NCBI GenBank assembly: GCA_024763555.1
Contig: JANTFG010000003.1
Location: 1-43,129 of the forward strand
From: Thermoanaerobaculales bacterium
Lineage (GTDB): Bacteria > Acidobacteriota > Thermoanaerobaculia > Thermoanaerobaculales > Sulfomarinibacteraceae
Direction of reading: 5' to 3'
DNA: 43,129 nucleotides
The notes beneath the pieces were generated by a model. It ran no database searches. It was not told the origin of the DNA and saw only the letters and a program-made list of their open reading frames with translations. Below are positions 1,531 through 21,295 of this stretch, piece after piece. Position 1 is the stretch's first letter. The number at the start of each line of letters is the position of its first letter. The translations under genes were made by a program, and so were the position numbers.

Positions 1531-1789
1531 GCCCAACGAACAAGGACAAATCCTGAGAGCGAAGCGAACCGCGATCTTATCCAGTTGTTGAACGAGCCCG
1601 GGCGGTCTGGCGGGGGCCCGGATGTATAGCAAATATCTTTTTTGGTTTCTGGTCCTGGCTCATGACCAATGCGCTCATACTCCTTGCCTGGCGCCCGCAT
1701 ACCAACTATAATTTCCTGCGAAATGAAAGGTGCGGAAACCTAAGCATGAAAAGCCTTTATAGCCTCAGAGTGCGAATCAAAAATTAGGC
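1531..1789 (+). repeat. Compound repeat type A (attC-A + leader + attI-like end)
   Basis: GCCCAAC..CGATCTTATCCAGTTGTTGAACGAGCCCGGG..AAGCATGAAAAGCCTTTATAG..GCGAATCAAAAA|TTAGGC. Confidence 0.9.
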
Positions 1790-1827
1790 CGCCATATTCT
1801 CCTCGCGATTTCTGGAGGTAGCCCACT

Positions 1828-2439
1828 ATGAGAAACAAACAAGGAACTAGATTCATCTCGACGGTAGGGTTTGTGGCCTTCGTCCTGTTGATTGGAATCA
1901 TGGTTGGAGCCTCCCAGTCTCCAATCGCGGGAACCGTCGTCACTGCGATTTTTGGTTTAGGAGCTGCCGTTCTTGAACTCTCAAAACCTGAAGAAACCAG
2001 ACCCGGTTTGCAAATCAAAAAGGGTGCAGCGGGAGCATTATTGCTCCTATTCGTCGTGTCTTTCTCTCCCGGAATTGTGATTGGAGCGAAGATCCGAGCC
2101 TCGGGATGGCCGCGCACAGAAGCTCCCCCAATCGAGTTCCCCTGGGGCGAAGCAAAACCACCGGAGGATCCCCTGAACGCTCTTGACTGGGTATTGATCA
2201 ACTCGAACCTTTTGGAACTCGGCTATTCGCAAGAACAAATCCGCGCCCTCTATCAGATTCAGGTCCTAGCTTGGGAATCCAATGGGGGTGAAAGCCCTCC
2301 GGGGAACATGCTTCGGATCGAACCGCTTTCAAACCTCTTTTCTGCAAAACCGGCTGAGGGCGGCGACTCGCAGGGAGGGTTGATAGCAAAGGAAGACGGC
2401 GGTCCTAAGCTCTGGAGTAATCAAGAGACCTCAGGCTAG
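1828..2439 (+). CDS. Hypothetical membrane protein (~3 TM)
   Basis: GGAGG RBS; hydrophobic segments. Confidence 0.7.
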   Translation: MRNKQGTRFISTVGFVAFVLLIGIMVGASQSPIAGTVVTAIFGLGAAVLELSKPEETRPGLQIKKGAAGALLLLFVVSFSPGIVIGAKIRASGWPRTEAPPIEFPWGEAKPPEDPLNALDWVLINSNLLELGYSQEQIRALYQIQVLAWESNGGESPPGNMLRIEPLSNLFSAKPAEGGDSQGGLIAKEDGGPKLWSNQETSG

Positions 2440-2518
2440 GTCGTGAACAGCGAACACTAACCACAGATGACATTTTGTACGTCCGACAAACAACTTCCCT
2501 GCAAACCCTTACGCGCTG

Positions 2519-2646
2519 GCCTAACGAGGCGCGGTGGGTGACCGGTACTCGTGTCGATCACATTGCTATTTCGGCCTTCGGCCGGCAGTGTGCGCGCCAC
2601 GTTGGCCTTCGGCCAAACGCACCGGCACCTGAGCTTAACGTTATCC
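2519..2646 (+). other. attC site (long type, related to 6217-6348)
   Basis: GCCTAACGAGGCGC..GTTATCC. The next cassette starts TTATCC and ends GGATAAC. Confidence 0.65.
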
Positions 2647-2657
2647 AGGAGAATCAT

Positions 2658-3044
2658 GTGGCGAATATTCCACTAAGCCAACTGCGGGAGATGTTTGATG
2701 GGATGAGTGCAAAGACTGATTGGGCTGTGTATGGGGAGATGCTCTGGGGTTATTTCTTCACGGACCGAGATCCCAAGAAGCTGCAGGACGCCGCAGCGCA
2801 GCTGTCTGCGGACGACTATCGGGTCGTGAGCATCTATGAGACAGATGACAAGAGTACATACTTTCTCCACGTTGAGAGAATCGAGTCTCACACTCCTGAA
2901 ACCTTAAATGTCCGAAACAAAGAGCTCAATCAACTGGCAGAAGAACTCAAAATCGATACCTATGACGGCATGGACGTTGGCCCAGCAAGTATCGTCAAAG
3001 TCACCAAGCCTTGGTGGAAGTTCTGGTCATCAAGCAGAGGATAA
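2658..3044 (+). CDS. RraB (RNase E inhibitor) domain protein
   Basis: WGYFF..LHVERIE..YDGMDVG pattern; GTG start after AGGAG. Confidence 0.7.
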   Translation: MANIPLSQLREMFDGMSAKTDWAVYGEMLWGYFFTDRDPKKLQDAAAQLSADDYRVVSIYETDDKSTYFLHVERIESHTPETLNVRNKELNQLAEELKIDTYDGMDVGPASIVKVTKPWWKFWSSSRG

Positions 3045-3107
3045 CAATTGCCTGGTAGGGCTTGGCTACCGCTCCGCTGTAGCCAGCCCCAGAGGCCCCA
3101 GTTATCT
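3039..3107 (+). other. attC site
   Basis: GGATAAC..GGGCTTGGCTAC / GTAGCCAGCCC..GTTATCT. Confidence 0.8.
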
Positions 3108-3116
3108 GGAGAAGTC

Positions 3117-3635
3117 ATGACGAGAGATCAGTTCTGGAAGATCGTTGCTGACACTTGCCGCTCGGATCCCCGCTCTGCTGAAGAGTGGGATACAAAGCTA
3201 ACCGATTCGCTGGCTACTTTGCCTGCGAATGAAATCGTTGAATGGGATCACATTTTTGATGACCTCGCAAAACAAGCCTATCGCACTGACCTTTGGGCTG
3301 CGGCATACCTCATAAACGGCGGAGCATCGGATGACGGATTCTACTATTTTCGCTGCTGGCTCATCGGTATGGGCAAAACAATCTACGAAAACGCGATTGC
3401 CAATCCAGACAGTCTTGCTGAAGTTGTGTCACCTGATTGGTTTTCTGAAGGAATTGATGCTGAGGCTGAGATATACGCTGTGGCCCACTTGGCATGGATG
3501 CAAGTCACTGGCAATGACTACGACGCAGACTACCCAGCTCGTAATGAATCTGTGGAGTTGGTCGGCGATGACTGGGATTTCGAAAACGACAGTGAAATGG
3601 AAAAACGCCTGCCTCGACTGGCGGCATTGTACTAA
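3117..3635 (+). CDS. DUF4240 domain protein
   Basis: FWKIV..LWAAAYLINGGASDDGFYYFRCWLI..RLPRL signature. Confidence 0.9.
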   Translation: MTRDQFWKIVADTCRSDPRSAEEWDTKLTDSLATLPANEIVEWDHIFDDLAKQAYRTDLWAAAYLINGGASDDGFYYFRCWLIGMGKTIYENAIANPDSLAEVVSPDWFSEGIDAEAEIYAVAHLAWMQVTGNDYDADYPARNESVELVGDDWDFENDSEMEKRLPRLAALY

Positions 3636-3668
3636 GAGTTATGACATGTTTGCGCGCATATTCGAGAC

Positions 3669-3749
3669 AAATAACAAAGCCGTAAACACGGACCTGTACA
3701 AGCAGCGGTTCCCGCTGCTCGTACAGTCCGGTTACGGCTGTCGTTAAGC
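3669..3749 (+). other. attC site
   Basis: AAATAAC..GCCGTAAACACGGACCTGTAC / GTACAGTCCGGTTACGGC..GTTAAGC. Confidence 0.9.
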
Positions 3750-3788
3750 CCCAGATCGCCTTCATTGACGCCAGAAAGGCACCCATCT

Positions 3789-4703
3789 ATGACGATTCCT
3801 GATTACCAATCGCTAATGCTCCCGATCCTCGAATTTTCTTCCGATGGACAGGAGCATTCGTTGAGGGAAGTCCGAGAAGCGATGGCAGTTCAATTCGAAC
3901 TGAACTCCGGCGAAATCAAACAATTGCTTCCAAGCGGCAGGCAGCCGGTGTTCAGTAACCGTGTCGCGTGGGCAAAGACGTACCTGCAGCAGGCTGGTTT
4001 GCTGTCTTCGACGCGTCGGGGCTTTTTCATAATCACGGATCAAGGGAAAGAGACAGTTCTTTCAGGACCCGCTGAAATATCCTCGAAGTACCTTGAACGC
4101 TTCGAGAGCTTCCTCGAGTTTCGGAAACGCAGCGGAAAGGCGAAGGATCAGAAACCCATCTCCGATCTAGCCAATGAAGATCCAAGTACTCCTGAAGAAC
4201 AACTCGAAAACGCCTTCCAGCGCCTCAGGGACGAACTCGAGACTGACCTCCTTGACCGGGTTTTGAGTTCGTCTCCAGCCTTTTTCGAACGCCTGGTTTT
4301 GGACCTTTTGTTGCGGATGGGTTATGGCGGTTCCCGCAGAGATGCGGCCCTGGCCTTGGGTCGATCCGGAGATCAAGGAATAGACGGTGTGATCAACGAG
4401 GATCGCCTCGGACTAGATGTGATCTACATTCAGGCGAAACGATGGGAGGGCACGGTCGGGCGCCCAGAGATCCAGAAGTTCGTAGGTTCTTTGCACGGGC
4501 AACACGCGCGCAAGGGTGTTTTCGTAACCACAGGCAGATTCTCGAAAGAAGCCCGCGAATATGTCACGCACATCGATCCAAAGGTTGTGCTCATCGACGG
4601 CGAGCGCCTCGCCGGACTAATGATTGATTTTGATCTCGGCGTTTCAACTGTTGAGTCGTTTGCGTTAAAGAAGACCGACACAGACTATTTCGATGATGAG
4701 TGA
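3789..4703 (+). CDS. mrr: Mrr type IV restriction endonuclease
   Basis: N-terminal IPDYQSLMLP..NRVAWA winged helix; GDQGIDG..IQAKRW catalytic motif. Confidence 0.95.
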   Translation: MTIPDYQSLMLPILEFSSDGQEHSLREVREAMAVQFELNSGEIKQLLPSGRQPVFSNRVAWAKTYLQQAGLLSSTRRGFFIITDQGKETVLSGPAEISSKYLERFESFLEFRKRSGKAKDQKPISDLANEDPSTPEEQLENAFQRLRDELETDLLDRVLSSSPAFFERLVLDLLLRMGYGGSRRDAALALGRSGDQGIDGVINEDRLGLDVIYIQAKRWEGTVGRPEIQKFVGSLHGQHARKGVFVTTGRFSKEAREYVTHIDPKVVLIDGERLAGLMIDFDLGVSTVESFALKKTDTDYFDDE

Positions 4704-4862
4704 GCGCTTTCACAGTACTTTGGCGTGAGAGTTCTTTGGTCTTACAAGGTGTTGTTTCCCTTCGATAGACAGAGTTCAGCGCAGATGATGGACTCGCCTG
4801 CGGCGAGGCTATTTTTTCTAGAAGGGCCGATAAACATCTTCTTTGTAAACTGTTAAGCGAAG

Positions 4863-5125
4863 TCCGAACGAACAAAGATAGATTGTGTGAGTCGGCGAGC
4901 CGCGATCTTATCCAGTTGTTGAACGAGCCCGGGCGTTCTGGCTGGGATCTGGATGTATAGGAAATAACTTCCGTGGATCCCTGTCCCGACTCATGACCAA
5001 TGTACTCCGGCGCACCTCCTTGCCTGGCGCCCGCATACCACCTACAATTTCCTGCGAAATGAAAGGTGCGGAAATTCAAGCATGAAAAGCATTTATAGGC
5101 TTAACGCGGGAATTATGGATTAGGT
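4863..5125 (+). repeat. Compound repeat type A
   Basis: Same attC-A and leader; ends GGAATTATGGA|TTAGGT. Confidence 0.9.
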
Positions 5126-5153
5126 GGAAAGGCAGCTGGAGAGGCACAGGCGC

Positions 5154-5623: not shown

Positions 5624-6175
5624 ATGATCCGTCGAACGACACTCGTCCTTTTCGTTTTGCTTCTTGTTTTGTCTCCATCGGCTCCAGCGGACGAGCCCGT
5701 GCTTTCTCAGGACCCATGTGAGGCAGCCGCGCGATACCTTCAGGTGGCTGATTTTTTCTTCTCTTGGGCGTTCGACAATCGAGACGATCCGGTACTTGGT
5801 AGATTCCCATTTCGAGAAACACTCGACGCTGCCGACAGAATCGTTGTTTATTGTCCTTTCGTCGCGCAGATGCACTTTGAAGACCTGGATCCCCGCCTCT
5901 TGCCGTGTTGCTGCTGTCCGCCTGACTACTCTGAGGACCACCAAGCCCCAACATGTGCGCGTCTTTCATTGGTTGTCCGTGAAGAAAAACCGGATTACCT
6001 GAAGGTCAGCTTTGGGATCAGCACCGGGGAGATGCAAGGCACGGCCTATTACTACACCTGCAAATGGACCGAGGGGGATTTGCAAGTCGAGCTTGTCAAG
6101 AGCGTCGTTATGCTGGCGGAGAGCCGCATCGATTGCATCGAAGGACTCGCCTTCGGCGAGGCTGTCTTTTCTTGA
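5624..6175 (+). CDS. Hypothetical secreted Cys-containing protein
   Basis: GGAGG RBS; signal peptide. Confidence 0.65.
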   Translation: MIRRTTLVLFVLLLVLSPSAPADEPVLSQDPCEAAARYLQVADFFFSWAFDNRDDPVLGRFPFRETLDAADRIVVYCPFVAQMHFEDLDPRLLPCCCCPPDYSEDHQAPTCARLSLVVREEKPDYLKVSFGISTGEMQGTAYYYTCKWTEGDLQVELVKSVVMLAESRIDCIEGLAFGEAVFS

Positions 6176-6216
6176 AGGACCAGTAGACATTGTTAACGCA
6201 GGCCCTTGCGCGAAGG

Positions 6217-6348
6217 CCTAACGAGGCGCAGCAGGTGACCGCTACTCGCGTCATCTGCACCGCAATTCTGGCCCCCGGCCAGGCAGTCCAGCTGTGACGT
6301 TGCCCCCAAGCGGGCAAACGTAACGGCCCCTGAGATTAACTTTATGTG
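6217..6348 (+). other. attC site (long type)
   Basis: Homologous to 2519-2646. The next cassette starts TTATGT and ends ACATAAC. Confidence 0.55.
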
Positions 6349-6363: not shown

Positions 6364-6597
6364 ATGAAAGCATACTTGGCAAACACCTTCCCAGACGAAG
6401 AAGGACCAATGGCAGAAGAAGGTAAAACAATTTACATTCATGGAACATTAGAACAACTCCTTGAGCTTTGCAGCTATTTCTCAGAACTAGAAAAACATTT
6501 AAGAGCAAATGAGACATGCCACATGCATTTTCAAGATCATTCTAGAAACTGGAATAAACAAAACTATATAGATGTCGCAATTGATATTGACACATAA
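6364..6597 (+). CDS. Hypothetical low-GC protein
   Basis: AT-rich ORF whose stop codon lies in R'' (ACATAAC). Confidence 0.65.
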   Translation: MKAYLANTFPDEEGPMAEEGKTIYIHGTLEQLLELCSYFSELEKHLRANETCHMHFQDHSRNWNKQNYIDVAIDIDT

Positions 6598-6797
6598 CGA
6601 ATAAGGGTTGATGTCGTGCGAAGCCACGATATCACCTCGTGTTGAACCGACCCGGGAAGGCCTCCTGGGGAATCAAAGAGAACTGAGCGAGCGGGCGCCA
6701 CGATGCGCAGTCACCGCAGAACTTGATGGAAATGTATTCAAGGAAACTCAAGCATGAAAGGCATTTATGACCCAAACGTACGAATCATGGATTATAT
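6592..6797 (+). repeat. Compound repeat type B (attC-B + leader + attI-like end)
   Basis: GGTTGATGTCGTG-CGAAG-CCACGATATCACC hairpin, GTTGAACCGACCCGGG, shared 3' core. Confidence 0.9.
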
Positions 6798-6812
6798 GGA
6801 CCAGAACAAGGG

Positions 6813-7130
6813 GTGGACGTAATCTTCTTCCTCAGGTTCGAGGTTGAACCACTGGTGGGCTCAGCCAACTGGGAGGAGTGCGGCGGGGGCCAGTTCAACT
6901 GCTGGATCAGGGCTGACAACATAGAGGCAGCGCGCAAGCGGGCGCTGGAAGTCATCGAATCGGATAGCTGGGTTCCCCTGCGGGAAGAGGAATCATTGGA
7001 AGTCCCGGATGACCACTACGAACCCGAAGCGCCCGGTCTAACTTACTACGATGAGGCGCAGCGCGATGGCGAGGCGTTTGTTGTCCACACGTGGCCACCC
7101 GATGGTGACGAAGAACAGGCGATCAACTAG
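6813..7130 (+). CDS. Hypothetical acidic protein
   Basis: ORF fills the cassette. Confidence 0.6.
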   Translation: MDVIFFLRFEVEPLVGSANWEECGGGQFNCWIRADNIEAARKRALEVIESDSWVPLREEESLEVPDDHYEPEAPGLTYYDEAQRDGEAFVVHTWPPDGDEEQAIN

Positions 7131-7139
7131 TGAGGCGCC

Positions 7140-7206
7140 ATGTATCGAACAAGGATTGATTGTGTGAGTCCGCGAACCGCAATCTCATCCAGGTGTTGAA
7201 CGAGCC
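7140..7206 (+). repeat. attC-A copy without leader
   Basis: GAACAAGGATTGATTGTG..GCAATCTCATCCAGGTGTTGAACGAGCC. Confidence 0.75.
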
Positions 7207-7563
7207 TTGATGGAGTACCACTTGCGACATGCAACCGGTCCGATGTTGGGATCATTTCTAGACTTCGGCGAGCCCGCCACCGGGCAATGTAGAAAGTCGA
7301 TAACCAGGTCAAGATCACTGCGGCTGTTATGAATCTTAAGCTCATGGCCGACGCTCTCAGGCGAGGCTCGAAGGTCCTTGCCTCCCTTCCGACTTCCCAT
7401 TATCGAATTCTCCACTCGTCTGTGCGCCAACTGGGCCAGCTGGGCACCAAATTTCCCTCGTTTTGTTTTCAAGCACCTCAATTCGTCTGCCTTCCATCCG
7501 GCTATTCTTCTCAGGGCTTTTAGGCCGGCAAGACGGATACGTCCCTATGAATTGGAGGAAGCC

Positions 7564-7998
7564 ATGAAAATCAACTGTCGCCGCGCCTTTGTAGTCGGCA
7601 CGACGTTCCTTCTATCCACGGCCATTTGCGGCCTTCCAGAATGTTCGCCCACCGAGCAGCCGGCGTCATCTAGCGCAGTCGTTTTCCGTGTGGTTGCCTC
7701 TGATCTTCCCAATACCCAGCTTCTTCCCGGCATTCAAGCCTATGGTCTGTCATGTAATTGTGAGCGAACATTTTTGGGAACTACCACTGACAACGGCGTT
7801 GCAATATCTGAGGGGTTGCTTCGAGAAAAGAATATCTCTTTCATTCTTTTTTCGTGCCCTGGTTTTCAAACGGCCGTGGTCGAAACTCAGATTCCCGGAG
7901 ATTTCTCAGGGCACAGTTTTGACGTGGTCGTGATGGCACCGATGCCAATGACCAAATGCCCTGAAAACGCATCTGAAGAAGGAGCCGAAGAGAAGTGA
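7564..7998 (+). CDS. Hypothetical secreted protein
   Basis: GGAGG RBS; signal-like N-terminus. Confidence 0.6.
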   Translation: MKINCRRAFVVGTTFLLSTAICGLPECSPTEQPASSSAVVFRVVASDLPNTQLLPGIQAYGLSCNCERTFLGTTTDNGVAISEGLLREKNISFILFSCPGFQTAVVETQIPGDFSGHSFDVVVMAPMPMTKCPENASEEGAEEK

Positions 7999-8089
7999 TC
8001 AGGGTCAATCCGCCGCAAGGTGCGCGGGTACAATGTTGGAGAGCGACGTCTTTTCAGTTTGCTACCCATTTGTCGCTTGAAAGTAGTGG

Positions 8090-8189
8090 TACGTTGCCCA
8101 CTCAACGTAGAACCTGATGGAAATAGACGTCAAGGAAACTCAAGCATGAAAAGCCTTTATAGGCTAATCGCGCGAATCATGGATTAGAC
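8090..8189 (+). repeat. 3' half of compound repeat type B
   Basis: CACTCAACGTAGAACCTGATG..CAAGCATGAAAAGC..GCGAATCATGGA|TTAGAC. Confidence 0.85.
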
Positions 8190-8273
8190 CTGGACCGCTT
8201 ACGGGCCTTGCGATACCTGAGTCTTCAGTCACGACCTGCAACGCGGTCTCACGATAGGCACCAATCGATACCT

Positions 8274-9071
8274 ATGGGAAGTCGCTGCAAATTCGAAACA
8301 CCTTGGAAGGAGATACCCTCCGATCATAGGACCGGTTTCCTTTCGCAACTGAGGATTGAAACCGACAGCGATCACCATCCCCTTTCTGGAGTCGATGTGA
8401 TACCTGTCGCACATCGGGTAGACCAAGATACGGTTCTGTTTCGTTTCAGAAACCAACCAGAACGACATGCTCAGGTGTTTCTTTGCTGGACTCCCGGTCC
8501 CCCAAGTATCAGCGGATTACCGCACGTAGAGTTTTTCGATTCGTTTGATGATTGGGCCGACTGTGTGATGGCCATTGACGCAGCGAAACCCGAAGAGGGT
8601 CGTGTTTTCACCAGGCTACCGGCAATTCCCTATTCGGCGAAGAATGCCGACGAACCTTTGCAGCCGATGTCCGAACAGATAATCATGTGGATCGGCATCA
8701 CATTCGTCCTTGGTGGCATGTGGGGAGTGGCGTCCTTCGTTGGCTTTTCGTTGGCCTTGCTTGTGCCCTTGATAGTACTCGTAGGCCTCGGGGTTCCTCT
8801 CAGGCTTCTCAACAGGAGAGAAGTAGTTTATGCGGTTCTTGGCCCGAGGAACGCGACCTTCTTTCTCGCAAACGGAACGGTCTCGAGCTTCAAGTTTCGC
8901 AGTACGAAGGTCAAGTGGACGCCGGCGTTGTCGATTCTGACGGGTCGATTGCTGAAACTAATTGACACTAAATCAGGGAATTGGGTGAGTTTTTCCGCCG
9001 GATTCCCTGGGCTGCGAAAGCTCTCTTCCCAATTCACGCATGTCCAATCTGATGAGCCTCGTTCTCGATAA
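8274..9071 (+). CDS. Hypothetical membrane protein (start uncertain)
   Basis: Long ORF with two TM helices. Confidence 0.6.
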   Translation: MGSRCKFETPWKEIPSDHRTGFLSQLRIETDSDHHPLSGVDVIPVAHRVDQDTVLFRFRNQPERHAQVFLCWTPGPPSISGLPHVEFFDSFDDWADCVMAIDAAKPEEGRVFTRLPAIPYSAKNADEPLQPMSEQIIMWIGITFVLGGMWGVASFVGFSLALLVPLIVLVGLGVPLRLLNRREVVYAVLGPRNATFFLANGTVSSFKFRSTKVKWTPALSILTGRLLKLIDTKSGNWVSFSAGFPGLRKLSSQFTHVQSDEPRSR

Positions 9072-9119
9072 CGAAGCACGGTGTTCGGGTTGCCCGTGGT
9101 TTTCCGAGGCAACGAATAG

Positions 9120-9328
9120 GGATAACGAAAAAGGGTTGAAGTCGTGCGAAGCCACGACATCACCTCGTGTTGAACCAACCCGGGAAGGCCTCTTGGGGAA
9201 TCAATGAGAATTGAGTAGGAGCGAGTGCCACGGTGCTCACTCAACGCAGAACTTGATGTAGAGGAACTTTACGGAAACTTAAGCATGAAAACCATTTATA
9301 GCCTAAGCGCGCGAAACATGGATTAGGC
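9120..9328 (+). repeat. Compound repeat type B
   Basis: As 6592-6797; ends GCGAAACATGGA|TTAGGC. Confidence 0.9.
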
Positions 9329-9360
9329 CTTCGAGCGAGCTGGATTCGTATGGAAACTCC

Positions 9361-9822
9361 ATGATCATTGAATGCCCACATTGCCACAAGAAAATCCTCC
9401 CGAACGACGATGGTCTTTGCCCGTCGTGCGGAAGATCTCCTCAGGACCTTCAGGGGGCTCGGCCGGAACTGACCAGCATTGAGATTGGAGGGAAAATGGA
9501 CTTTCCCGACTGTTGTTCCTTGTGCGGTCAACCTTCAACGCGCAGGGTGAAAGTCAGTTCCACAAGAGAAATTGGCGGGGAAAGCATTTTTGTGAAGATC
9601 ATGCTTGGGTTCTTCAGAGTTCCGTTCTTTTCGGCGATTGCCGGAAGAGGATTTGGCCAGCGTCAGGCCGTCACGATACACCTGCCTCAGTGCAAATCTT
9701 GCTCCCGTACAGAGGGAAAAATCAGCCCGAAGTACATAGATTTCGGAAGAGGGACGATGACGTTTGTGGTTCACGAAATATTTGCAAAGCGCGTTCGGGA
9801 TTCTTTGAGGAGGACCAAGTAA
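9361..9822 (+). CDS. Hypothetical protein with CxxC zinc-ribbon motifs
   Basis: CPHC, CPSC, CSLC, CKSC. Confidence 0.7.
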   Translation: MIIECPHCHKKILPNDDGLCPSCGRSPQDLQGARPELTSIEIGGKMDFPDCCSLCGQPSTRRVKVSSTREIGGESIFVKIMLGFFRVPFFSAIAGRGFGQRQAVTIHLPQCKSCSRTEGKISPKYIDFGRGTMTFVVHEIFAKRVRDSLRRTK

Positions 9823-9944
9823 CACCTCTGGCGTGGAGCTATCAAGGGGAAAATGGACTCCCCTCCGGCGAGACTGTTCTTCCTTGCAATTGTTCTTTGT
9901 CACAAGTCAACGCTTGACATTTCATACCTCATAGAAGGCAGTCT

Positions 9945-10448
9945 ATGAAAATCGCATTCCTCGTTTGCGTAATGGTTTTAGGGTGGAGTGGGAGCATGGC
10001 AGAAGAGCAAGAAATCGGCATTATCGCCAGAACCTATGAAGACGGTTTTCCGCCCATCTTCAAGCTGGCGAATGAATTGCCCGACGGTCAGACACGTTGG
10101 ACACTTCCTTGGTTGGCCGCAATCACGTGGGAGTACGATGGATCCGCCAATAATGGCATGCCCACCGAAAGCGTCCTTGAACAAATGAAAGGTCTCGAAA
10201 ACGCGGTGGAAAAGACACTGGTTGCTTCTGGTTCCTGCCACTACGCCTATAGTCGGACAGGAAACGGGCTGAAGGTGCTCACGTACTACGTCGCGAACCA
10301 GGATCAATTCATGGAGGGTTTGAATTCAGCTCTTCGCGATCATCCCAGATACCCAATCGAGATGGAATTCTACGAAGACGCCGATTGGGAGGTGTTTCAG
10401 AAACTGTTGGAGCAGGTTCGAAAGGGTGAAGACAAATCAAATGCCTAA
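9945..10448 (+). CDS. DUF695 domain protein, signal peptide
   Basis: WEY..NNGMP..TGNG...YYV..D.DWE pattern. Confidence 0.75.
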   Translation: MKIAFLVCVMVLGWSGSMAEEQEIGIIARTYEDGFPPIFKLANELPDGQTRWTLPWLAAITWEYDGSANNGMPTESVLEQMKGLENAVEKTLVASGSCHYAYSRTGNGLKVLTYYVANQDQFMEGLNSALRDHPRYPIEMEFYEDADWEVFQKLLEQVRKGEDKSNA

Positions 10449-10688
10449 CGAACAAGAAAAGATCGTGAGAGCGAAGCGAGCCGCGATCTTATCCAGTTGT
10501 TGAAGGAGCCCGGGCGGTCTGACTGGGGCCCTGGATGTATAGCAAATGTCTTTCTTGGTTTCCGGTCGTCTCAAAGGCGGAGCGGGAGCCACGTTGCTCA
10601 CTCGGCGCGGAACCTGATGGAAATAGACTCAAGGAAACTCAAGCATGAAAAGCATTTATAGCCTAAGCGCGCGAATCATGCATTAGGC
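10443..10688 (+). repeat. Chimeric compound repeat (5' type A, 3' type B)
   Basis: A-type to ~10565, then B-type GCCACGTTGCTCACTC..; ends GCGAATCATGCA|TTAGGC. Confidence 0.85.
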
Positions 10689-10694
10689 AGTGAG

Positions 10695-11015
10695 ATGAAG
10701 AAATGGATCACAGGTTTGGTGGCAACATTGCCGCACATTGGCGTGGCAATGCTCCTGCTGATTGGCTCACGCGGGCATGACATACATGGGGGCATCTTCA
10801 GCGCACGGTTCTACGACACCGTCCTTGACTTTATCATCCCATGGGGATTCCTTAGTTGCATTTTTCTCTGCCACCTGATTGTCGGTGTGCTTGCCGTTCG
10901 CAAGGAATCCCTGCTCGGTGCCTGCGCAAGCGCGGGACTCATGGCCGTTGGCTACACCATCGCCGGATTCTTGTTCATGGTCTCAGCCCTCCCCGACAAT
11001 TGGTACATTGGATGA
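10695..11015 (+). CDS. Hypothetical membrane protein (3 TM)
   Basis: Hydrophobic ORF directly after the crossover. Confidence 0.7.
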   Translation: MKKWITGLVATLPHIGVAMLLLIGSRGHDIHGGIFSARFYDTVLDFIIPWGFLSCIFLCHLIVGVLAVRKESLLGACASAGLMAVGYTIAGFLFMVSALPDNWYIG

Positions 11016-11022
11016 AAGGACT

Positions 11023-11078
11023 GTCGAACCACGCACTGCACGGTACGGAGTACCGCCGCCCGTGAGTGCGGTCGAACC
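11023..11078 (+). other. Degenerate attC
   Basis: GTCGAAC..GCACTGCACGG / CCGTGAGTGC; R' is decayed. Confidence 0.5.
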
Positions 11079-11138
11079 CTGCGCTCGTCGTCGCGCTAGC
11101 CCCGACGCTGAGCAACAATGTGAGGAGCCAGACCCAAC

Positions 11139-11963
11139 ATGATCTTCCTCTACGGCGACACAGAATTCGAGTTGTTCGAGCCCACATTGACAGATGCGGA
11201 ACTCCAGGTCCTGATTGCCAACGCCTGCGATCTGCTTGAGACTCGGGGGGAAAAATGGGCTCACACGACGCTCTCTTCTGTTCCCTTCAGATTGAGCGTC
11301 GCCACAAATGACTTCGGGGATGACTTCAACGTCCTGCATGCATCGGTCTCGCTCAGTGAGTATGAGAGGCTTAGGAACACCCTGGCCATACCCGGAGGGA
11401 AACAGATATTTGGCCTTGTCGCGGACGTCCTGTCGGAGATTGGCCCATACGTTCGGTGCATTGCCTGCTATCTCGACACATCAGACCGTGTGCTCCCGGC
11501 AGAGCAGTCCGCAGATGAAGTCCTCGCGCAGTTCACTGCCTCTACCATTCGAGACCGCTGGCGCAAGGCGCTGGAAAGACAGCATGATGACCCGGAGGGT
11601 GCTATCACCATGGCGCGATCACTTCTCGAGTCGGTCCTGAAGCATGTGCTTGATCAACGAGGGGTGCAGTACGATCACCGCACAGATCTGCCCAAGCTCT
11701 ACAGGCTCGCAGCGAACGCGTTCCAACTCGCTCCGAGCCAGCATACCGAAGAGGTGTTCAGACAAATCCTGGGTGGATGTACCGCAGTGGTAGAAGGCCT
11801 GGGGACACTGAGAAACAGGCTCGGGGACGCACACGGAAAGGGCGCCAGAGCGGTGAAACCAGCGCGTCGCCATTCCCAATTGGCGGTCAATCTGGCCGGC
11901 ACAATGGCCACGTACCTGATCGAGACATTCGAGGAGCGGATGTCAGGTGGAGGCACCAAATGA
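11139..11963 (+). CDS. Abortive infection family protein (Abi_C domain)
   Basis: AITMARSLLESVLK..LRNRLGDAHGKG..LAVNLAG. Confidence 0.85.
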   Translation: MIFLYGDTEFELFEPTLTDAELQVLIANACDLLETRGEKWAHTTLSSVPFRLSVATNDFGDDFNVLHASVSLSEYERLRNTLAIPGGKQIFGLVADVLSEIGPYVRCIACYLDTSDRVLPAEQSADEVLAQFTASTIRDRWRKALERQHDDPEGAITMARSLLESVLKHVLDQRGVQYDHRTDLPKLYRLAANAFQLAPSQHTEEVFRQILGGCTAVVEGLGTLRNRLGDAHGKGARAVKPARRHSQLAVNLAGTMATYLIETFEERMSGGGTK

Positions 11964-12213
11964 ACAAGGATAGATCGTGAGAGCGAAGCGAGCCGCGATC
12001 TTATCCGGTTGTTGAACGAGCCCGGATGGCTTGGCGGGGTCCTGGATGTATAGGAAATAACTTTCGTGGATCCTTGGCCCGGCTCATGACCAATGCGCTC
12101 ATACTCCTTGCCTCGAGCCCGTATACCAACTATTATTTCCTGCGAAATGAAAGGTGCGGAAACTCAAGCATGAAAAGCATTTATAGCCAAACCGCGCGAA
12201 TCATGCTTTAGGC
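11955..12213 (+). repeat. Compound repeat type A
   Basis: Ends GCGAATCATGCT|TTAGGCC; the cassette ends with the complementary GGCCTAAT. Confidence 0.9.
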
Positions 12214-12898: not shown

Positions 12899-13009
12899 AG
12901 ATGCTGATCGGAAGGTCGCATTGTCGAACTACATGATGCTGACTCGTAGCCATCTATGGCCTAATACCCCGTTTAGGAGGGTAGCTGTCATTTTGCAATT
13001 CCAAATACG

Positions 13010-13113
13010 CCGCCACGATGCTCGCTCAACGTAGAACTTGATGCAGAGGAACTTCAAGGAAACTCAAGCATGAAAAGCATTTATAGCCTAACCGCGCGAA
13101 TCGTTCATTCGGC
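13010..13113 (+). repeat. 3' half of compound repeat type B
   Basis: Ends GCGAATCGTTCA|TTCGGCC; the cassette ends GGCCGAAC. Confidence 0.85.
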
Positions 13114-13733: not shown

Positions 13734-13788
13734 CCACTACATGCCTGAGTTCAACTATGAAGTGTGACAGAACGCCAAACCAAAACCG

Positions 13789-14130
13789 GCCGAACGAGCA
13801 AGGATAGATTGTGTGAGTCCGCGAACCACAATCTTATCCAGTTGTTGAACGAGCCCGGGCGGTCTTCCGAGGAATTACCATCCTTTCTCGTCTTCTGTCT
13901 TCTCCCCTCACGCCTCACTCCTTACTCTTCACTCCACACCGGACGAATGCCCGGCGGGGCTATAGGAAATAACTTCCGTGGATCCCTGTCCTGACTCATG
14001 ACCAAAGCGCTCATACTCACCCCCTTGCATGGCGCCCGCATACCAACTATAATTTCCTGCGAAATGAAAGGTTCGGAAACTCAAGCATGAAAAGCCTTTA
14101 TAGCCCAACCGCGCGAATCATGGATTAGGC
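13789..14130 (+). repeat. Compound repeat type A with a pyrimidine-rich insert
   Basis: attC-A, insert at ~13866-13960, then leader; ends GCGAATCATGGA|TTAGGC. Confidence 0.85.
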
Positions 14131-15164: not shown

Positions 15165-15496
15165 ATTGGAGTGGATTTGGCCCCGGCGGGGCTGTTGTCT
15201 CTGAAAGATGGACAAACGATGTCTTTGGAAGCTGGTACCCCATTGACCTAGTGTTTTCCTGGGGAATTGAGCCGCGTTTGGTGTTGAGTGGAGCGAAGAT
15301 TGGGCCGAAGCTCTCCGTCCGTCGACTGTCCAGTGATTCATTGACTCCCCCGGTACGTTCTTCCTTTTCATCATGCAATCACCAATGTTGCCAATCCCGC
15401 CGCGTTGTGTTCGATTGGGTATCAGTACTCCACACGGTAAGCAGACCTCAAAACCCAGAGGGGACAACGGTTCAAGCAGGTAAATAGAATCGGCTG

Positions 15497-15605
15497 AAAC
15501 GGTGCCATGTTGCTCACTCAGGGCAGAACTTGATGCAAAGGAACCTCAAGGAAACCCAAGCATGAAAAGCATTTATAGCCAAACTGCGCGAATAATGTAT
15601 TAGGT
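15497..15605 (+). repeat. 3' half of compound repeat type B
   Basis: Ends GCGAATAATGTA|TTAGGTGC; the cassette ends GCACCTAAC. Confidence 0.85.
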
Positions 15606-16945: not shown

Positions 16946-16953
16946 CACTAGGT

Positions 16954-17051
16954 GCATGATATCATGGTAGTTGGAGGGAGACAAAAATATGACGCCTATT
17001 ACCCTGCTGTGTTACAGCGCGTCACTTCGGACGTATAATTAGTAGTTCGGC
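16954..17051 (+). repeat. Second copy of the attI/promoter region
   Basis: Homologous to 715-811, with identical GTCACTTCGGACGTATAATTAGTAGTTCG. Confidence 0.9.
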
Positions 17052-17594: not shown

Positions 17595-17597
17595 GAA

Positions 17598-17710
17598 GCC
17601 GAACAAACAAGGGTAGATCGTGAGAGCGAAGCGAGCCGCGATCTTATCCGGTCGTTGAAAGAGCCCGGGCGGTTTGAGTAGCTGAGAGGGTATGCCCGCG
17701 AACATTCGGC
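17598..17710 (+). repeat. attC-A with shortened leader
   Basis: attC-A + GAGCCCGGGCGG, ends GCGAACA|TTCGGC; the cassette ends GCCGAAT. Confidence 0.75.
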
Positions 17711-17738
17711 CCTACCGCATAGCCTTTTGCGGATCATC

Positions 17739-17767
17739 TTGACGTACTTCTAAAGGTACTTTAAATT
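17739..17767 (+). promoter_or_regulatory. TA promoter
   Basis: TTGACG-17-TAAATT with GTAC-N8-GTAC operator-like motif. Confidence 0.7.
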
Positions 17768-17785
17768 GATGTATGGGAGAGCGTC

Positions 17786-18067
17786 ATGACTAGAATCCCG
17801 GAGATAGTCCCTGTTTCTGATCTTCGCCAGGAAGCTGCTGCCGTGCTCAAGAAACTACACGAAAGCAACGACCCTGTGGTTGTCACTCAACGCGGTCGGG
17901 CGGCGGCTGTAATCCTGAGCGTGGAAGAGTACGAGCGAAAGGAACGTGACCTGGAGATCCTACGGTTGTTGGCTCGGGGGGAAAAAGAGATCGCGAGTGG
18001 GCGAGGATTTGACCTGGACGACGTGATGTCGGAAGCGGCAGCATTATTGGCGGAATCAGACGAGTGA
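17786..18067 (+). CDS. Phd/YefM antitoxin
   Basis: VSDLR..PVVVTQRGRAAAVILS. Confidence 0.92.
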   Translation: MTRIPEIVPVSDLRQEAAAVLKKLHESNDPVVVTQRGRAAAVILSVEEYERKERDLEILRLLARGEKEIASGRGFDLDDVMSEAAALLAESDE

Positions 18068-18357
18068 AAGTACGTTTCACACCTGCGGCACGGCTCGAGT
18101 TCCTCGAAGCTATCGCTTACATTAGACGTGACAAACCTGGCGCGGCCTCGAAGTTCCAACGCAAGGCGCACGAAAAGTTGAAGCGGCTGTTGAGCTTTCC
18201 GGATTCTGGCAGGCGAATACCCGAATTCATCGATATCCCGTACCGCGAGCTGCTCGTCCATCCATATCGGTTCTTCTATCGAGTCCAAGGGGATGTCGTG
18301 TGGATTGTGGCGGTTTGGCATGACGCGCAGTTGGTCGATGAACCGCCAGGTTCATAA
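18064..18357 (+). CDS. RelE/ParE toxin
   Basis: FPDSGRRIPE..RELLVHPYRFFYR. Confidence 0.92.
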   Translation: MKVRFTPAARLEFLEAIAYIRRDKPGAASKFQRKAHEKLKRLLSFPDSGRRIPEFIDIPYRELLVHPYRFFYRVQGDVVWIVAVWHDAQLVDEPPGS

Positions 18358-18382
18358 AACTAGAAAACACAAGATATAACCT

Positions 18383-18589
18383 GCCGAATGACTATGGGTT
18401 GGTGTCGCGTGAAACCTCGACATCACCTGGTGTTGAACCAACCCGGAAAGGCCTCTTGGGGAATCAAAGAGAACTGAGCGAGCGGGTGCCACGATGCTCA
18501 CTCAACGTAGAACTTAATGGAAATCAATCTCAAGGAAACTCAAGCATGAAAAGCCTTTATAGCCTAACCGCGCGAATCGTTCATTAGGC
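18383..18589 (+). repeat. Compound repeat type B
   Basis: Ends GCGAATCGTTCA|TTAGGC. Confidence 0.9.
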
Positions 18590-18609
18590 CAATCCCTCCG
18601 CCCATCATC

Positions 18610-19017
18610 ATGAAGAAGCGACTCAGAAAGAAGAGACACCTTGGGGAGTTCCAGGAGATCGGCTTCGAGGTTTCGTTCACGTTCGAGCCGGGCGCTACCA
18701 TCGAGGAGGACAACGACTTGCTCTTTGCCTTCCTGGATTACGCAATCGAGGACAACGGCCTACTGTTTGGTGGCGGAGGCCGGGATGGGTCCTGGTCCGG
18801 AGTGGCATACGCGGACGGCCCTCCGGGCACCAGGACATCCCCCGAGCAGCGAGGGGCCGTACTCGAGTGGCTCAATCGTCATCCGCGCATGAAGACCATC
18901 CGGGCCGGGGAGTTCTTCGACCTATGGCACGATGAGCTGCCGTCGGACAGCGGCGCAGAGGTTGCTCCGGAGAATCGCAGCGCCGAGGTACAAAATGTTA
19001 ACGGCGGCCATTTCTAG
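18610..19017 (+). CDS. yggL: YggL (DUF469) family protein
   Basis: RLRKKRHLGEFQEIGF..IEDNGLLFGGGG. Confidence 0.88.
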   Translation: MKKRLRKKRHLGEFQEIGFEVSFTFEPGATIEEDNDLLFAFLDYAIEDNGLLFGGGGRDGSWSGVAYADGPPGTRTSPEQRGAVLEWLNRHPRMKTIRAGEFFDLWHDELPSDSGAEVAPENRSAEVQNVNGGHF

Positions 19018-19045
19018 CGGTTTCGTGGCTTTAAGTCGCGATTCC

Positions 19046-19074
19046 TTGACTACAACGCAGTATGCGCGTATATT
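19046..19074 (+). promoter_or_regulatory. TA promoter
   Basis: TTGACT-17-TATATT. Confidence 0.75.
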
Positions 19075-19095
19075 CTTTGTAGCTACGGAGGGTAA

Positions 19096-19338
19096 ATGAG
19101 AACCAACATTCGAAAATGGGGAAACAGCTTGGCCGTGAGAATCCCGAGGGCCTTTGCCTCCGATCTGGGTATTGATCAGAATGCCCCTGTCGAACTCTCT
19201 CTGGAGGACGGAGCGATGATATTGCGGCCCGCACTGGAAAACCCATACAAACTTGAAACTCTCCTGGACCAGGTGACCGATGAAAACATCCATTCGCTGG
19301 TCGACTGGGGTCGGCCTGCAGGCAAGGAAGCCCTGTGA
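19096..19338 (+). CDS. mazE: MazE/AbrB antitoxin
   Basis: KWGNSLAVRIP..DWGRPAGKE. Confidence 0.95.
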   Translation: MRTNIRKWGNSLAVRIPRAFASDLGIDQNAPVELSLEDGAMILRPALENPYKLETLLDQVTDENIHSLVDWGRPAGKEAL

Positions 19339-19667
19339 AATCCGCACCTAATCGAGGCGATTTCGTTTGGCTTAGCTTTGACCCACAAGCCGGCCACGAG
19401 CAGGCAGGCACCAGACCGGCTCTTGTCTTGTCTCCTCTGGCCTACAATCAACGCATCGGCCTGGCGCTCGTATGTACCATCACCAGCCAAGGAAAAGGTT
19501 ACCCTTTTGAAGTCAAGATTCCCGAAGGCTCTGACATCCATGGCTTTGTCCTTGCGGACCAACTCAAGAGCGTAGATTGGCGGGCAAGAGTTTTCCGGCC
19601 AGCTGGAACGGCACCTCATACCGTCGTAAAGGAAACGATCAAGAAATTTGCAACGCTCTTGCAGTAA
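19335..19667 (+). CDS. mazF: MazF endoribonuclease toxin
   Basis: PQAGHEQAG.RPALVLS..KGYPFEV..DQLKSVDWRAR. Confidence 0.95.
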   Translation: MKSAPNRGDFVWLSFDPQAGHEQAGTRPALVLSPLAYNQRIGLALVCTITSQGKGYPFEVKIPEGSDIHGFVLADQLKSVDWRARVFRPAGTAPHTVVKETIKKFATLLQ

Positions 19668-19689
19668 GCGGCTTCTCAAGAATTCGGTA

Positions 19690-19947
19690 CCAAAGGTACG
19701 ATGACAAATCCCGAGAGGGAAGCGATCCGCGATCTTATCCAGTTGTCGCCCGAAACCGGGCGGTCAGGCTGGGATCTGGATGTATAGGAAATAACTTCCG
19801 TGGATCCCTGTCCCAACTCTTGACCAATGCGCTCATACTCCTTGCCTCGAGCCCGTATACCAACTATTATTTCCTGCGAAATGAAAGGTGCGGAAACCCA
19901 AGTATGAAAAGCCTTTATAGCCTAAGTGCACGAATCACACATTGGGC
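19690..19947 (+). repeat. Compound repeat type A (attC part decayed)
   Basis: Ends CGAATCACACA|TTGGGCC; the cassette ends GGCCCAAC. Confidence 0.85.
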
Positions 19948-19968
19948 CAACGGAAAAAGGAGGAAGAA

Positions 19969-20187
19969 ATGAAAGCTGAATTTACGGCAATTATCGAGCC
20001 GGCCCCAGAGGGGGGGTATTGGGCAATATGCCCGGAAGTACCGGGAGCAAACGGACAGGGAGAAACGATAGAAGAAGCGAAGGACAACTTAAGAGAGGTC
20101 ATTGAACTAATCCTGGAGGATCGCAGGCAAGATATTCTTCGCGGATTACCTGAAGATGCAATTCGTGAGAAAGTTGAAGTTGCATGA
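19969..20187 (+). CDS. hicB: HicB antitoxin
   Basis: EGGYWAICPEVPGANGQGETIEEA. Confidence 0.92.
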   Translation: MKAEFTAIIEPAPEGGYWAICPEVPGANGQGETIEEAKDNLREVIELILEDRRQDILRGLPEDAIREKVEVA

Positions 20188-20339
20188 AGCGCCGAGATTT
20201 GGAACGCAAACTTCGGATAGCCGGATGCTATATGAAAAGAGAAGGAGGGTCTCACTTCCTTTGGATCAATCCTAAAAATGGAGTCATCGAAGCGGTGCCT
20301 CGGCATAAGGAAATCCTGAAGAATATGAATGCCGAGTAA
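20184..20339 (+). CDS. hicA: HicA toxin (51 aa, possibly shortened; not in the ORF track)
   Basis: MKRRDLERKLRIAGCYMKREGGSHFLWINPKNGVIEAVPRHKEILKNMNAE; ATGA overlap with hicB. Confidence 0.85.
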   Translation: MKRRDLERKLRIAGCYMKREGGSHFLWINPKNGVIEAVPRHKEILKNMNAE

Positions 20340-20342
20340 ATG

Positions 20343-20574
20343 GCCCAACGAACAAGGAGAGGTCGTGAGAGCGAAGCGATCCGTGATCTGATCCAATTAT
20401 TGAACGAGCCCGGGCGGTCTGGCTGGGGCCTGGATGTATAGGAAATAACTTCCGTGGATCCCTGTCCTGACTCATGACCAATGCGCTCATACTCCTTGCC
20501 TGGCGTCCGCATAGCAACTATGATTTCCTGCGAAATGAAAGGTACGGAAACTCAAGCATGAAAAGCAGTTAGGG
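20343..20574 (+). repeat. Compound repeat type A, 3'-truncated at an alternative G|TT
   Basis: Ends CAAGCATGAAAAGCAG|TTAGGG. Confidence 0.85.
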
Positions 20575-20604
20575 TCAAATCTGGGTGAATAATGCGTGAG
20601 GCTA

Positions 20605-20633
20605 TTGACGTTAAAGCGTCGAGACGTTATATT
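20605..20633 (+). promoter_or_regulatory. TA promoter
   Basis: TTGACG-17-TATATT; ATG lies 6 bp downstream. Confidence 0.75.
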
Positions 20634-20639
20634 GTCTAC

Positions 20640-20870
20640 ATGACTGATACTCGTAGAGCCACCGTCTACTTTGATCCAGAGATTCACCGTGCGCTCAAAC
20701 TTAGGGCCGCCTCAATGGACAGGTCAATATCAGAAATGGTGAACGAAGCCGTGCGCGATTCTCTCTCCGAAGATGCTTACGACCTTGCAGTATTCGACGA
20801 GCGCGAAAATGAACCTGATATTGATTTCGAAGAGTACCTCAAGTCGTTGAAGCGCCGTGGCAAAATTTAA
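20640..20870 (+). CDS. CopG/RHH antitoxin
   Basis: RATVYFDPEIHRALKLRAA..SISEMVNEAVR. Confidence 0.88.
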   Translation: MTDTRRATVYFDPEIHRALKLRAASMDRSISEMVNEAVRDSLSEDAYDLAVFDERENEPDIDFEEYLKSLKRRGKI

Positions 20871-21129
20871 GGTTCGCATCAAAGCCTCGGTCGCCAAGGA
20901 AATCGAGAGTATAGAACCCAAAAAGGTCCGAAGGCAGGTTACGTCTCGCATCGCTCAACTAGCTGATAATCCGCGCCCTCACGGCTGTGAAAAACTATCC
21001 GGAAAATCTAATCGATTTCGAATTCGGCAGGGCGTGTGGCGAATCTTGTACTCGATCCACGATCAAGAACTCATCGTCTTCGTTGTCAAAGTCGGGCACC
21101 GGAGTGAGGTCTACAAGAATCGCGCTTAA
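20857..21129 (+). CDS. RelE toxin
   Basis: NPRPHGCEKLSG..RIRQG..KVGHRSEVY. Confidence 0.93.
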   Translation: MAKFKVRIKASVAKEIESIEPKKVRRQVTSRIAQLADNPRPHGCEKLSGKSNRFRIRQGVWRILYSIHDQELIVFVVKVGHRSEVYKNRA

Positions 21130-21186
21130 TACACCGTTTCAGTGTTCTTCTTTCGTGGTTCAATCTCGAACCGATGCGCAACCCAT

Positions 21187-21295
21187 GAAACGGTGCCACG
21201 CCCTCACTCAAGGCAGAACTTGATGCAAAGGAACTCTAAGGAAACTCAAGCATGAAAAGCCTTTATAGCCAAACCGCGCGAATCATGAATTAGGC
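21187..21295 (+). repeat. 3' half of compound repeat type B
   Basis: Ends GCGAATCATGAA|TTAGGC. Confidence 0.85.

Follow-up and report, generated by a model that had tools for sequence, protein, structure and literature searches.

The first 21.8 kb of contig JANTFG010000003.1 (assembly GCA_024763555.1) of a Thermoanaerobaculales bacterium (Acidobacteriota, Sulfomarinibacteraceae) hold a cassette array belonging to a sedentary chromosomal integron in which decay has left only a stub of the integrase gene. The window, i.e. the whole stretch of 43,129 nucleotides that we analysed, is the entire contig (C3) of a short-read metagenome-assembled genome (MAG; 444 contigs, 78% complete). At 14 junctions of this array the cassettes end in a composite module, which we tentatively interpret, with a probability of about 45%, as an oversized attC end doubling as an expression adaptor. 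The site is real and unusual; the function that we propose for it is read from sequence logic alone.

A composite module at fourteen cassette junctions

Each module spans ~100-340 nt and is a mosaic of up to four parts: an R'' box (RYYYAAC or RYYYAAT), an imperfect hairpin of family A or B that is always followed by GTTGAAC, a variable non-coding leader belonging to one of at least three sequence families (the third seen in metagenome contigs), and a terminal block of constant 50-nt length whose last base lies right before the crossover. Copies of 100-290 nt share ~85-90% identity and differ mutually by 10-20%. An earlier note made from the letters of the window had described such a compound junction unit, and all 14 end coordinates that it listed, 13 of full copies and one of a truncated copy, proved right. 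It had also let every full copy begin with an A or B hairpin, which is the case for 10 of the 14 modules and fails for those ending at 8189, 13113, 15605 and 21295.

The block is present in the window in 13 full copies and one truncated copy, all on the + strand. A 26-nt core pattern gave 12 + strand matches at three mismatches or fewer and none in 100 shuffles; the diverged copy ending at 6797 was recovered with a 23-nt pattern, and the truncated one ending at 20574 was seen in alignments. We aligned 19 full copies, 13 from the window, two from contig C20 and one from contig C381 of the same genome, and three from two metagenome contigs. The 50-nt stretch from GGAAAC to TT shows not a single indel in any of the 19 and the AA-N7-TT spacing is invariant, while the six bases preceding TT vary. 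Of the 14 junctions of the window, 12 have A in front of TT, one has T (12213) and one G (the truncated 20574), so that the replacement of the G of G|TT by A (once T), as formerly proposed, holds everywhere except at the truncated copy.

Beyond the window, the same genome has three further blocks. Two of them, downstream of ftsZ on C20, stand on either side of a HicAB-like pair, the third is on C381, and separate pieces of modules lie on contigs C24 and C79. Every one of the 17 genome copies sits in a cassette-type context, and their orientation with respect to the cassettes is always the same. The C20 copies belong to a second mini-array without integrase (~17350-14600, reverse strand), directly downstream of ftsA-ftsZ, which consists of one plain attC and two family-A modules with the HicAB-like pair between them.

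Elsewhere the block is rare. Its pattern has no match in a collection of one genome per species, modules A and B have no BLAST match among 72,556 plasmids, and a metagenome scan returned three copies on two short contigs of the Joint Genome Institute (JGI). The earlier note had suggested looking for the core next to an intact intI in relatives; it is absent beside 12 intact intI genes, whose adjoining arrays contain no module and few repeats. Next to intact intI genes, loci L038 and L039 (in relatives G043 and G006) show odd tandem 6-7-nt repeats flanking GC-rich hairpins, without homogeneous attC arrays.

The hairpins are distributed differently. Against 76 other genomes of the family, module A matched in its hairpin part only and in a single genome (G077); against 40 relatives, module B likewise matched in its hairpin part only, in G024, where the family-B hairpin has a homologous start of the leader and no block. 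A search of hairpin A against 400 genomes of the phylum, with two candidates scored per genome, gave no match. Besides G077, the family-A hairpin occurs without the block in four MAGs of other phyla, and GTTGAAC is conserved after the hairpin in such genomes as well. In these four (loci L018-L021, labelled Gammaproteobacteria, Syntrophobacteraceae, Desulfosarcina and Desulfobacterales) the hairpin, loop included, is nearly unchanged, and in at least one case it directly follows the stop codon of an ordinary gene, outside any obvious array. It may represent a widely transferred type of attC, or a hairpin with another role.

The cassette boundary at the 3' end of the block

The cassette boundary is the 3' end of the block, at N|TTRRRY. 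The earlier note had placed it there, and not at the GTT of the attC, and this is borne out both by covariation between cassette starts and R'' boxes and by contigs from other samples. Concerning the former, we considered every cassette whose start and R'' region could both be named, 18 in total and failures included. The summed complementarity between the TTRRRY start of a cassette and its own RYYYAAC box is 95; shuffled pairings give 65 +/- 5.4, and not one of 100000 permutations attains 95. Pairs of at least 7 nt are found in 7 of the 18 own combinations, the other 11 being shorter, and in 12 of the 306 off-diagonal ones; the variable third base and bases 7-9 contribute to the match. All four complementarities quoted in the earlier note are correct. 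Further examples are module 8, with 8 nt of complementarity between its R'' and the start of its own cassette at 12208 (9 nt counting the terminal A at 13107), the cassette starting at 17705, after a short family-A site, which pairs with the R'' at 18383-18389, and an independent metagenome contig (L016) with a 9-nt match.

Contigs from four runs of three studies were matched to the array with a likeness of ≥90%. Repeats interrupt these contigs, and the breakpoints given here are examples among the matches listed, not frequencies. In runs X3 and X6, both from other studies, homology to a cassette begins exactly at 5120, with a different sequence upstream that in X3 ends in G; exchange therefore really takes place at the N|TT behind the block. 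At the plain site, the cassette at 2640 has a different neighbour in X3, X5 and X6. Modules in tandem, with no open reading frame (ORF) between them, are found in X3 and X5, and their joints run from the end of a block to an R'' (14131 to 13788, 14127 to 10449, 14130 to 2520). Since, moreover, each ORF segment along the array is followed by exactly one site, we consider the stretch from R'' to block as one unit. Finally, hairpin A is joined to leader B at the common GTTGAAC in X3, X5 and X6. Within shared cassettes, the other samples also have 24 nt inserted behind 20310 and lack 5 nt at 19421, which shows that the array varies at the population level.

The last base of R'' is C in 10 and T in three of the 13 modules in which R'' could be identified, and the last base of the module is A. 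Pairing of the two gives G.T or A-T on the - strand and a C.A mismatch on the + strand. Because the final T of R'' matches the terminal A in three modules, these data favour a folded R box of attC type rather than a purely double-stranded attI, and, together with the single site per ORF segment, they point to the canonical bottom strand as the one that would fold.

Putative expression signals and competing explanations

The block contains a Shine-Dalgarno (SD)-like AGGA some 8-9 nt ahead of an ATG that is kept in all 19 copies. From this ATG a frame of 13 codons runs over the crossover point and, in 14 of the 19, ends at a TAG formed by positions 3-5 of the next cassette's core site (TTAGGC). 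The frame is unstopped at three junctions of the window, two of which (13113 and 19947) precede genes with their own SD. Its peptide is not under selection, since only 9 of 38 distinct codon variants are synonymous (29 are not), close to the neutral share. In attI1, ORF-11 has an SD 8 bp before its ATG, a frame spanning the site and a stop at positions 3-5 of the core site in the cassette that is inserted, and its amino-acid changes matter little (PMC8876359). By its layout, the block would thus work as a coupler of the ORF-11 type, an SD-ATG frame laid over the crossover with its stop supplied by the next core site. Family-A leaders additionally keep a rightward sigma-70-like motif, TTGCCT-N17-TAYWAT, in five window copies of one scan and in eight aligned copies of the family, although the whole leader is conserved and not the motif alone. 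The internal promoters considered in the earlier note thus have a candidate motif in family A, and no such motif is present in the other leader families.

Under the reading that we favour, cassettes would be delimited in the usual way, by a TTRRRY start and a complementary RYYYAA(C/T) end, and at 14 junctions the 3' recombination site would be a composite of ~100-340 nt rather than a hairpin of 50-130 nt. Long-range pairing on the bottom (-) strand would create the R box, with G.T or A-T at the non-canonical base, and IntI would cleave AA|T on that strand. That an integrase tolerates the ATT core, as the earlier note supposed, is an inference, since no intact integrase is found in the MAG. The block would be an expression adaptor that travels with the recombination site. 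Translation of the mini-frame would normally end at the TAG within the next TTAGGC, and since the frame crosses the crossover and stops there, ribosomes would be delivered 7-45 nt upstream of the next gene, in a layout equivalent to ORF-11/attI1 translational coupling repeated at every junction; family-A leaders would supply a sigma-70-like promoter motif ~70 nt upstream. Both mini-frame and promoter would have to be in use.

Several observations weigh against this interpretation. R'' and R' are complementary across the whole module, 100-340 nt apart, but no L''/L' stem adjoins both R half-sites; the hairpin abuts R'' only and has no L''/L' partner beside R', hence no canonical folded attC, and single-strand folding of whole modules gave no consistent canonical attC fold. 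The A or B hairpin is absent from 4 of the 14 modules, and in family A it carries its bulges (T...AG) on the 3' arm of the + strand, whereas the plain attCs of this array have theirs on the other arm (for the bulge rules of folded attC bottom strands, see PMC3053210). Lone blocks preceded by unrelated DNA occur on C381 and in run X5, so that the block may be a self-sufficient site. In other samples, breakpoints lie in addition between R'' and hairpin and at the GTTGAAC that follows the hairpin. No IntI above the family cut-off was found in this 78%-complete MAG. On the expression side, a depletion of SD before the downstream genes did not emerge (an SD-like tetramer precedes 4 of 14, compared with 39% among 1983 long ORFs and 19% in random windows), leader families B and C have no promoter-like motif, and the promoter scan as a whole was not enriched (13 found, 12.7 expected). 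Considering also the length of ~100-340 nt against a quoted attC range of 57-141 bp (PMC12901181), and a crossover that is GTT at only one of 14 junctions (A in 12, T in 1), the module, judged from these features, is not a canonical attC; nor is it demonstrably an attI.

A rival reading, less likely but still to be reckoned with, takes the block itself for an attI-like site that suffices on its own as double-stranded DNA and comprises an L box (..CGAA), an R box (TTRRRY) and 7 bp of spacer between them. It would be carried by a gene-less promoter/leader unit between a normal attC hairpin and the next cassette and make each junction an extra entry site, comparable to the delta-attI-type cassettes of mobile integrons. 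It accounts well for a block that is the sole invariant part and constant in length, for a hairpin that is dispensable and, in family A, of the 'wrong' bulge polarity, and for the lone blocks on C381 and in X5; a B-leader piece on C24 begins right at G|TT, the hairpin A/leader B joints in X3, X5 and X6 lie at GTTGAAC, the block contains an ORF-11-like frame as attI1 does (PMC8876359), and delta-attI sites inside arrays function for IntI1 (PMC12901181). However, an attI is a single site adjoining intI, and here 14 copies are internal. The block shows no likeness to the sequence adjoining the intI stub or to the attI regions in the integrons of 12 relatives, and its putative L box matches the inverted R box at 3 of 5 bases only. 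Moreover, other genera without the block keep GTTGAAC and the bases behind it together with the hairpin, so the GTT of this motif does not usually serve as a junction; in other samples the repeat unit of tandem modules starts at R'' and not at TTGAAC; and the matching of the final T of R'' to the terminal A in three modules speaks for a folded site. As regards the internal attI-like entry sites proposed in the earlier note, the block resembles attI1 in its ORF-11-like frame, and no link in sequence or geometry to any real attI was found. Likewise, the AA-N7-TT geometry holds as a spacing within the block, but it was said to be that of the resident attI, and the first junction beside the stub (~707|708) has neither this geometry nor any similarity to the block. 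We consider it unlikely that the block represents a new type of integron site, a portable attI-like entry-and-expression adaptor, cleaved at AA|T and written onto each cassette end, with the hairpin unneeded for mobility in this lineage; were this so, every position of the array would be an insertion point and an autonomous start of translation and, with family A, of transcription.

It is less plausible still that leader and block form a non-integron repeat (MITE-like, i.e. similar to miniature inverted-repeat transposable elements, REP-like, i.e. similar to repetitive extragenic palindromes, or regulatory) spread by homologous recombination or gene conversion, with no role in IntI recombination and with the start/R'' complementarity as a relic of ordinary attCs. 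Mosaic modules, hybrids such as 10443-10682 and separately occurring pieces fit such a history, as do copies whose length and identity suit homologous recombination, a dispersed repeat family that invaded both intI and module 9, and the TT at both ends of the leader-plus-block stretch. Yet the 17 genome copies keep to cassette contexts and to one relative orientation, no terminal inverted repeats or transposase link were found (the module has no sequence in common with the two IS110-family genes, which lie on contigs C71 and C114), no match to Rfam, to a group II intron or to a plasmid turned up, and in other samples the 3' end is the cassette boundary to the base. We gave a very small chance to an inverted polarity, in which the family-A hairpin is read on the + strand, cleavage occurs at the canonical AA|C of R'', which reads GTT on the opposite strand, the ATTRRRY after the block is the uncleaved partner of R'', and the cassette consists of hairpin, leader, block and a reversed ORF with its own promoter. 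The T-N6-G bulges on the + strand 3' arm of hairpin A follow the pattern of folded bottom strands (PMC3053210), X3 has breakpoints between R'' and hairpin (6587 to 11962, 2638 to 1537), and a promoter and leader ahead of each ORF would be explained. On the other hand, some ORFs would then have two sites and others none, where the canonical reading gives one per cassette; the plain attCs and the intI stub have canonical polarity, the R box would contain a C.A mismatch on the + strand, and the breakpoint at 5119|5120 stays unexplained. An assembly artefact, i.e. a chimeric contig produced from collapsed or mis-joined repeats, is extremely improbable: the MAG is indeed a short-read assembly of 444 contigs and the repeats exceed typical k-mers, but the copies differ mutually by 10-20% and the same modules and cassettes occur in contigs of the four runs and in two JGI metagenome contigs. 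Only the order of the cassettes could be artefactual.

Identity with an insertion sequence (IS), a MITE or a group II intron was rejected. The earlier note had named such a match, or a spread independent of cassettes, as speaking against its reading, and neither was encountered in the Rfam search, the comparison with IS110-family genes or the contexts of the genome copies. At gathering threshold, the whole window has no Rfam family, and at E<=1 bases 1-22000 gave only a chance-level microRNA match (RF04038, E 0.66) over the plain attC at 3674-3743. RNAalifold on eight copies of the 3' 110 nt found no conserved structure (-2.8 kcal/mol), and a structured RNA was likewise discarded.

Unusual gene cassettes of the delta-attI type were reportedly treated by Partridge in 2009. 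In the usual picture of integrons, cassettes are promoterless and end in short hairpins, expression falls with distance from the single cassette promoter Pc, and the translational help of ORF-11 is given at attI only. Internal promoters in arrays, attI remnants as cassette ends and translational coupling at attI1 are already known, and in the literature that we searched, supplements not covered, we found no description of a conserved block uniting these roles and recurring at most junctions of one array. The oversized attC end that we favour shares with the attC of sedentary chromosomal integrons, such as the Vibrio cholerae repeats (VCRs), its position at the 3' end of the cassette, the pairing of RYYYAAC with the cassette's own TTRRRY start, its homogeneity within the array and, in most copies, an imperfect hairpin with bulged bases beside R''. 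It differs from them in length (~100-340 nt against 57-141 bp; PMC12901181), in having A instead of G before TT and no L' partner beside R', in the 100-290 nt of non-palindromic leader between hairpin and R', and in the missing hairpin of 4 of the 14 copies.

With attI1 and its ORF-11, the block shares an SD-ATG frame over the crossover, a TAG stop from the next cassette and an unimportant peptide (PMC8876359), as well as the AA-N7-TT spacing. In contrast to attI1, it lies away from intI in many copies per array, is tied to an upstream R'' that covaries with the far side, and has no sequence similarity to the attIs examined or identifiable sites of DR1/DR2 type. Remnants of attI (delta-attI) can act as cassette ends and are recombined by IntI1 (Gonzales Machuca et al. 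2026, PMC12901181), so that there too a non-hairpin sequence replaces or supplements attC as the 3' site inside an array; those, however, are sporadic remnants of a known attI in mobile integrons (PMC12901181), whereas the block recurs at 13-14 junctions of a chromosomal array and has no known parent attI. Gene-less promoter cassettes of Vibrio and Treponema integrons can drive downstream cassettes (bioRxiv 10.1101/2023.11.21.568050; PMC8876359), and are comparable as non-coding units in arrays, the family-A leader having a sense-strand sigma-70-like motif. Since such cassettes already show relief from the distance to Pc (bioRxiv 10.1101/2023.11.21.568050), the relief by internal promoters put forward in the earlier note is not new. 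Unlike them, separate units of diverse sequence each with its own ordinary attC (bioRxiv 10.1101/2023.11.21.568050; PMC8876359), the leader is conserved, is fused to the site of the preceding cassette and ends in a crossover; the promoter-like motif is restricted to family A, and no separate attC can be defined for the leader unit. Group IIC-attC introns (PMC3001079) and IS1111-attC elements (PMC11187229) are also foreign sequences in attC with fixed orientation, and the outward promoter Pout of the former serves downstream cassettes (PMC3001079). They are 1.2-2 kb long, encode a reverse transcriptase or a DEDD transposase (PMC3001079, PMC11187229) and, in the case of the introns, lie on the gene side of attC in its bottom strand (PMC3001079), whereas the module has no intron or ribozyme signature and no link to IS110-family genes.

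This natural array thus seems to place an ORF-11-like coupler, fused to the recombination site, at nearly every junction, and one repeat family (A) to add a promoter-like motif fused in the same way. Use of the block would mean that expression signals can ride as cargo on recombination sites, that some integrases could do without the G of the GTT core and without a canonical L box, and that attC finders limited to ~200 nt would mis-annotate such arrays. The block alone, the hairpin alone and the whole module offer defined substrates for establishing the minimal needs of IntI.

The integron setting and feature coordinates

The array part of the window (bases 1-21.8 kb) has a G+C content of ~51-55% and small ORFs on the + strand, while the remainder has ~57-68% and ordinary genes (MatE, FKBP, Ser/Thr kinase, AAA ATPase). 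Array products include two MazEF pairs, Phd/ParE, Unstab_antitox/ParE, Mrr, Abi_C, YggL, RraB and several DUFs, a content typical of chromosomal integrons, and these small single-gene or toxin-antitoxin units stand in one orientation, separated by sites. Together with the intI stub, the plain attCs with G|TT and the start/R'' complementarity, this confirms the earlier recognition of an integron array. No tRNA or tmRNA was found.

An intact divergent intI does not adjoin the array. The stub, the only integrase trace in the window (see Table), matches TIGR02249 positions 2-39 at 519-632 of the - strand (E 6e-6); 43 of its residues (4-46) align at 56% identity to residues 15-57 of the 337-aa IntI of relative G052, and homology to IntI ends there. 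IntI above the family cut-off is present in 20 of the 61 genomes of this family that we searched. In place of the rest of intI stands a dispersed repeat, to which BLAST assigns 57 hits on 32 contigs and which occupies 90-520 of the window (copies 141-206 and 263-330) and displaces all but the first ~46 intI codons; a related repeat lies directly upstream of the lone block on C381. The insert in module 9 (13866-13960) is a CT-rich dispersed repeat that is also found on contigs C17, C204 and C316.

Table. Integrase remnant, recombination sites and modules of the array, in window coordinates.
Feature	Coordinates	Strand	Remarks
intI stub	231..659	-	only integrase trace in window
Plain canonical attC, G|TT	1090..1142	+	bulged bases on + strand 5' arm
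Module 1, family A	1531..1783	+	R'' 1531-1537, hairpin, leader, block 1734-1783; crossover 1783|1784
Promoter-like motif of module 1, TTGCCT-N17-TATAAT	1684-1712	+	
Family D long plain attC, 125 nt, G|TT end	2516..2640	+	second copy 6217-6340
Plain attC, G|TT	3672-3745		
Module 2, family A	4863..5119	+	boundary 5119|5120 backed by X3 and X6 contigs
Module 3, family B hairpin and leader	6592..6791	+	most diverged block; mini-frame unstopped at junction
Lone family A hairpin	7146..7213	+	no leader, no block
Module 4, ~100-nt B-type 3' leader and block only	8085..8183	+	no A/B hairpin
Module 5, family B	9119..9322	+	
Module 6, hybrid	10443..10682	+	hairpin plus 5' leader of family A, then B-type 3' leader plus block
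Module 7, family A	11954..12207	+	T precedes TT
Module 8	12958..13107	+	no A/B hairpin; R'' ends AAT
Module 9, family A	13788..14124	+	dispersed repeat inserted ~13866-13960
Module 10, B-type 3' leader and block only	15495..15599	+	
Short family A site, 108 nt	17597..17704	+	hairpin, small second hairpin, A|TT, no block
Module 11, family B	18383..18583	+	R'' ends AAT; mini-frame 18546-18587
Module 12, family A	19690..19941	+	degenerate 5' part
Module 13, family A	20341..20568	+	block cut after first ~25 nt, joined to G|TT
Module 14	21124..21289	+	no A/B hairpin; R'' ends AAT; array's last junction

Other short repeats were noticed along the array. The first 40 nt of the window resemble the end of a clustered regularly interspaced short palindromic repeat (CRISPR), a candidate that we rejected as it has no second copy in the genome. 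Positions 708-818 and 16950-17050 share a 5' region of ~100 nt ahead of two different small-ORF cassettes, the latter preceding the Unstab_antitox/ParE pair; both copies begin with CTARGY, not TTRRRY, and contain a strong sigma-70-like motif (TTACAA or GTTACA, N17, TATAAT). A terminator-like hairpin with a T run and a conserved tail is repeated at 4787-4837 and 6140-6190, just upstream of two cassette 3' sites, and occurs also at locus L017; some cassettes therefore seem to end in a terminator before the next module.

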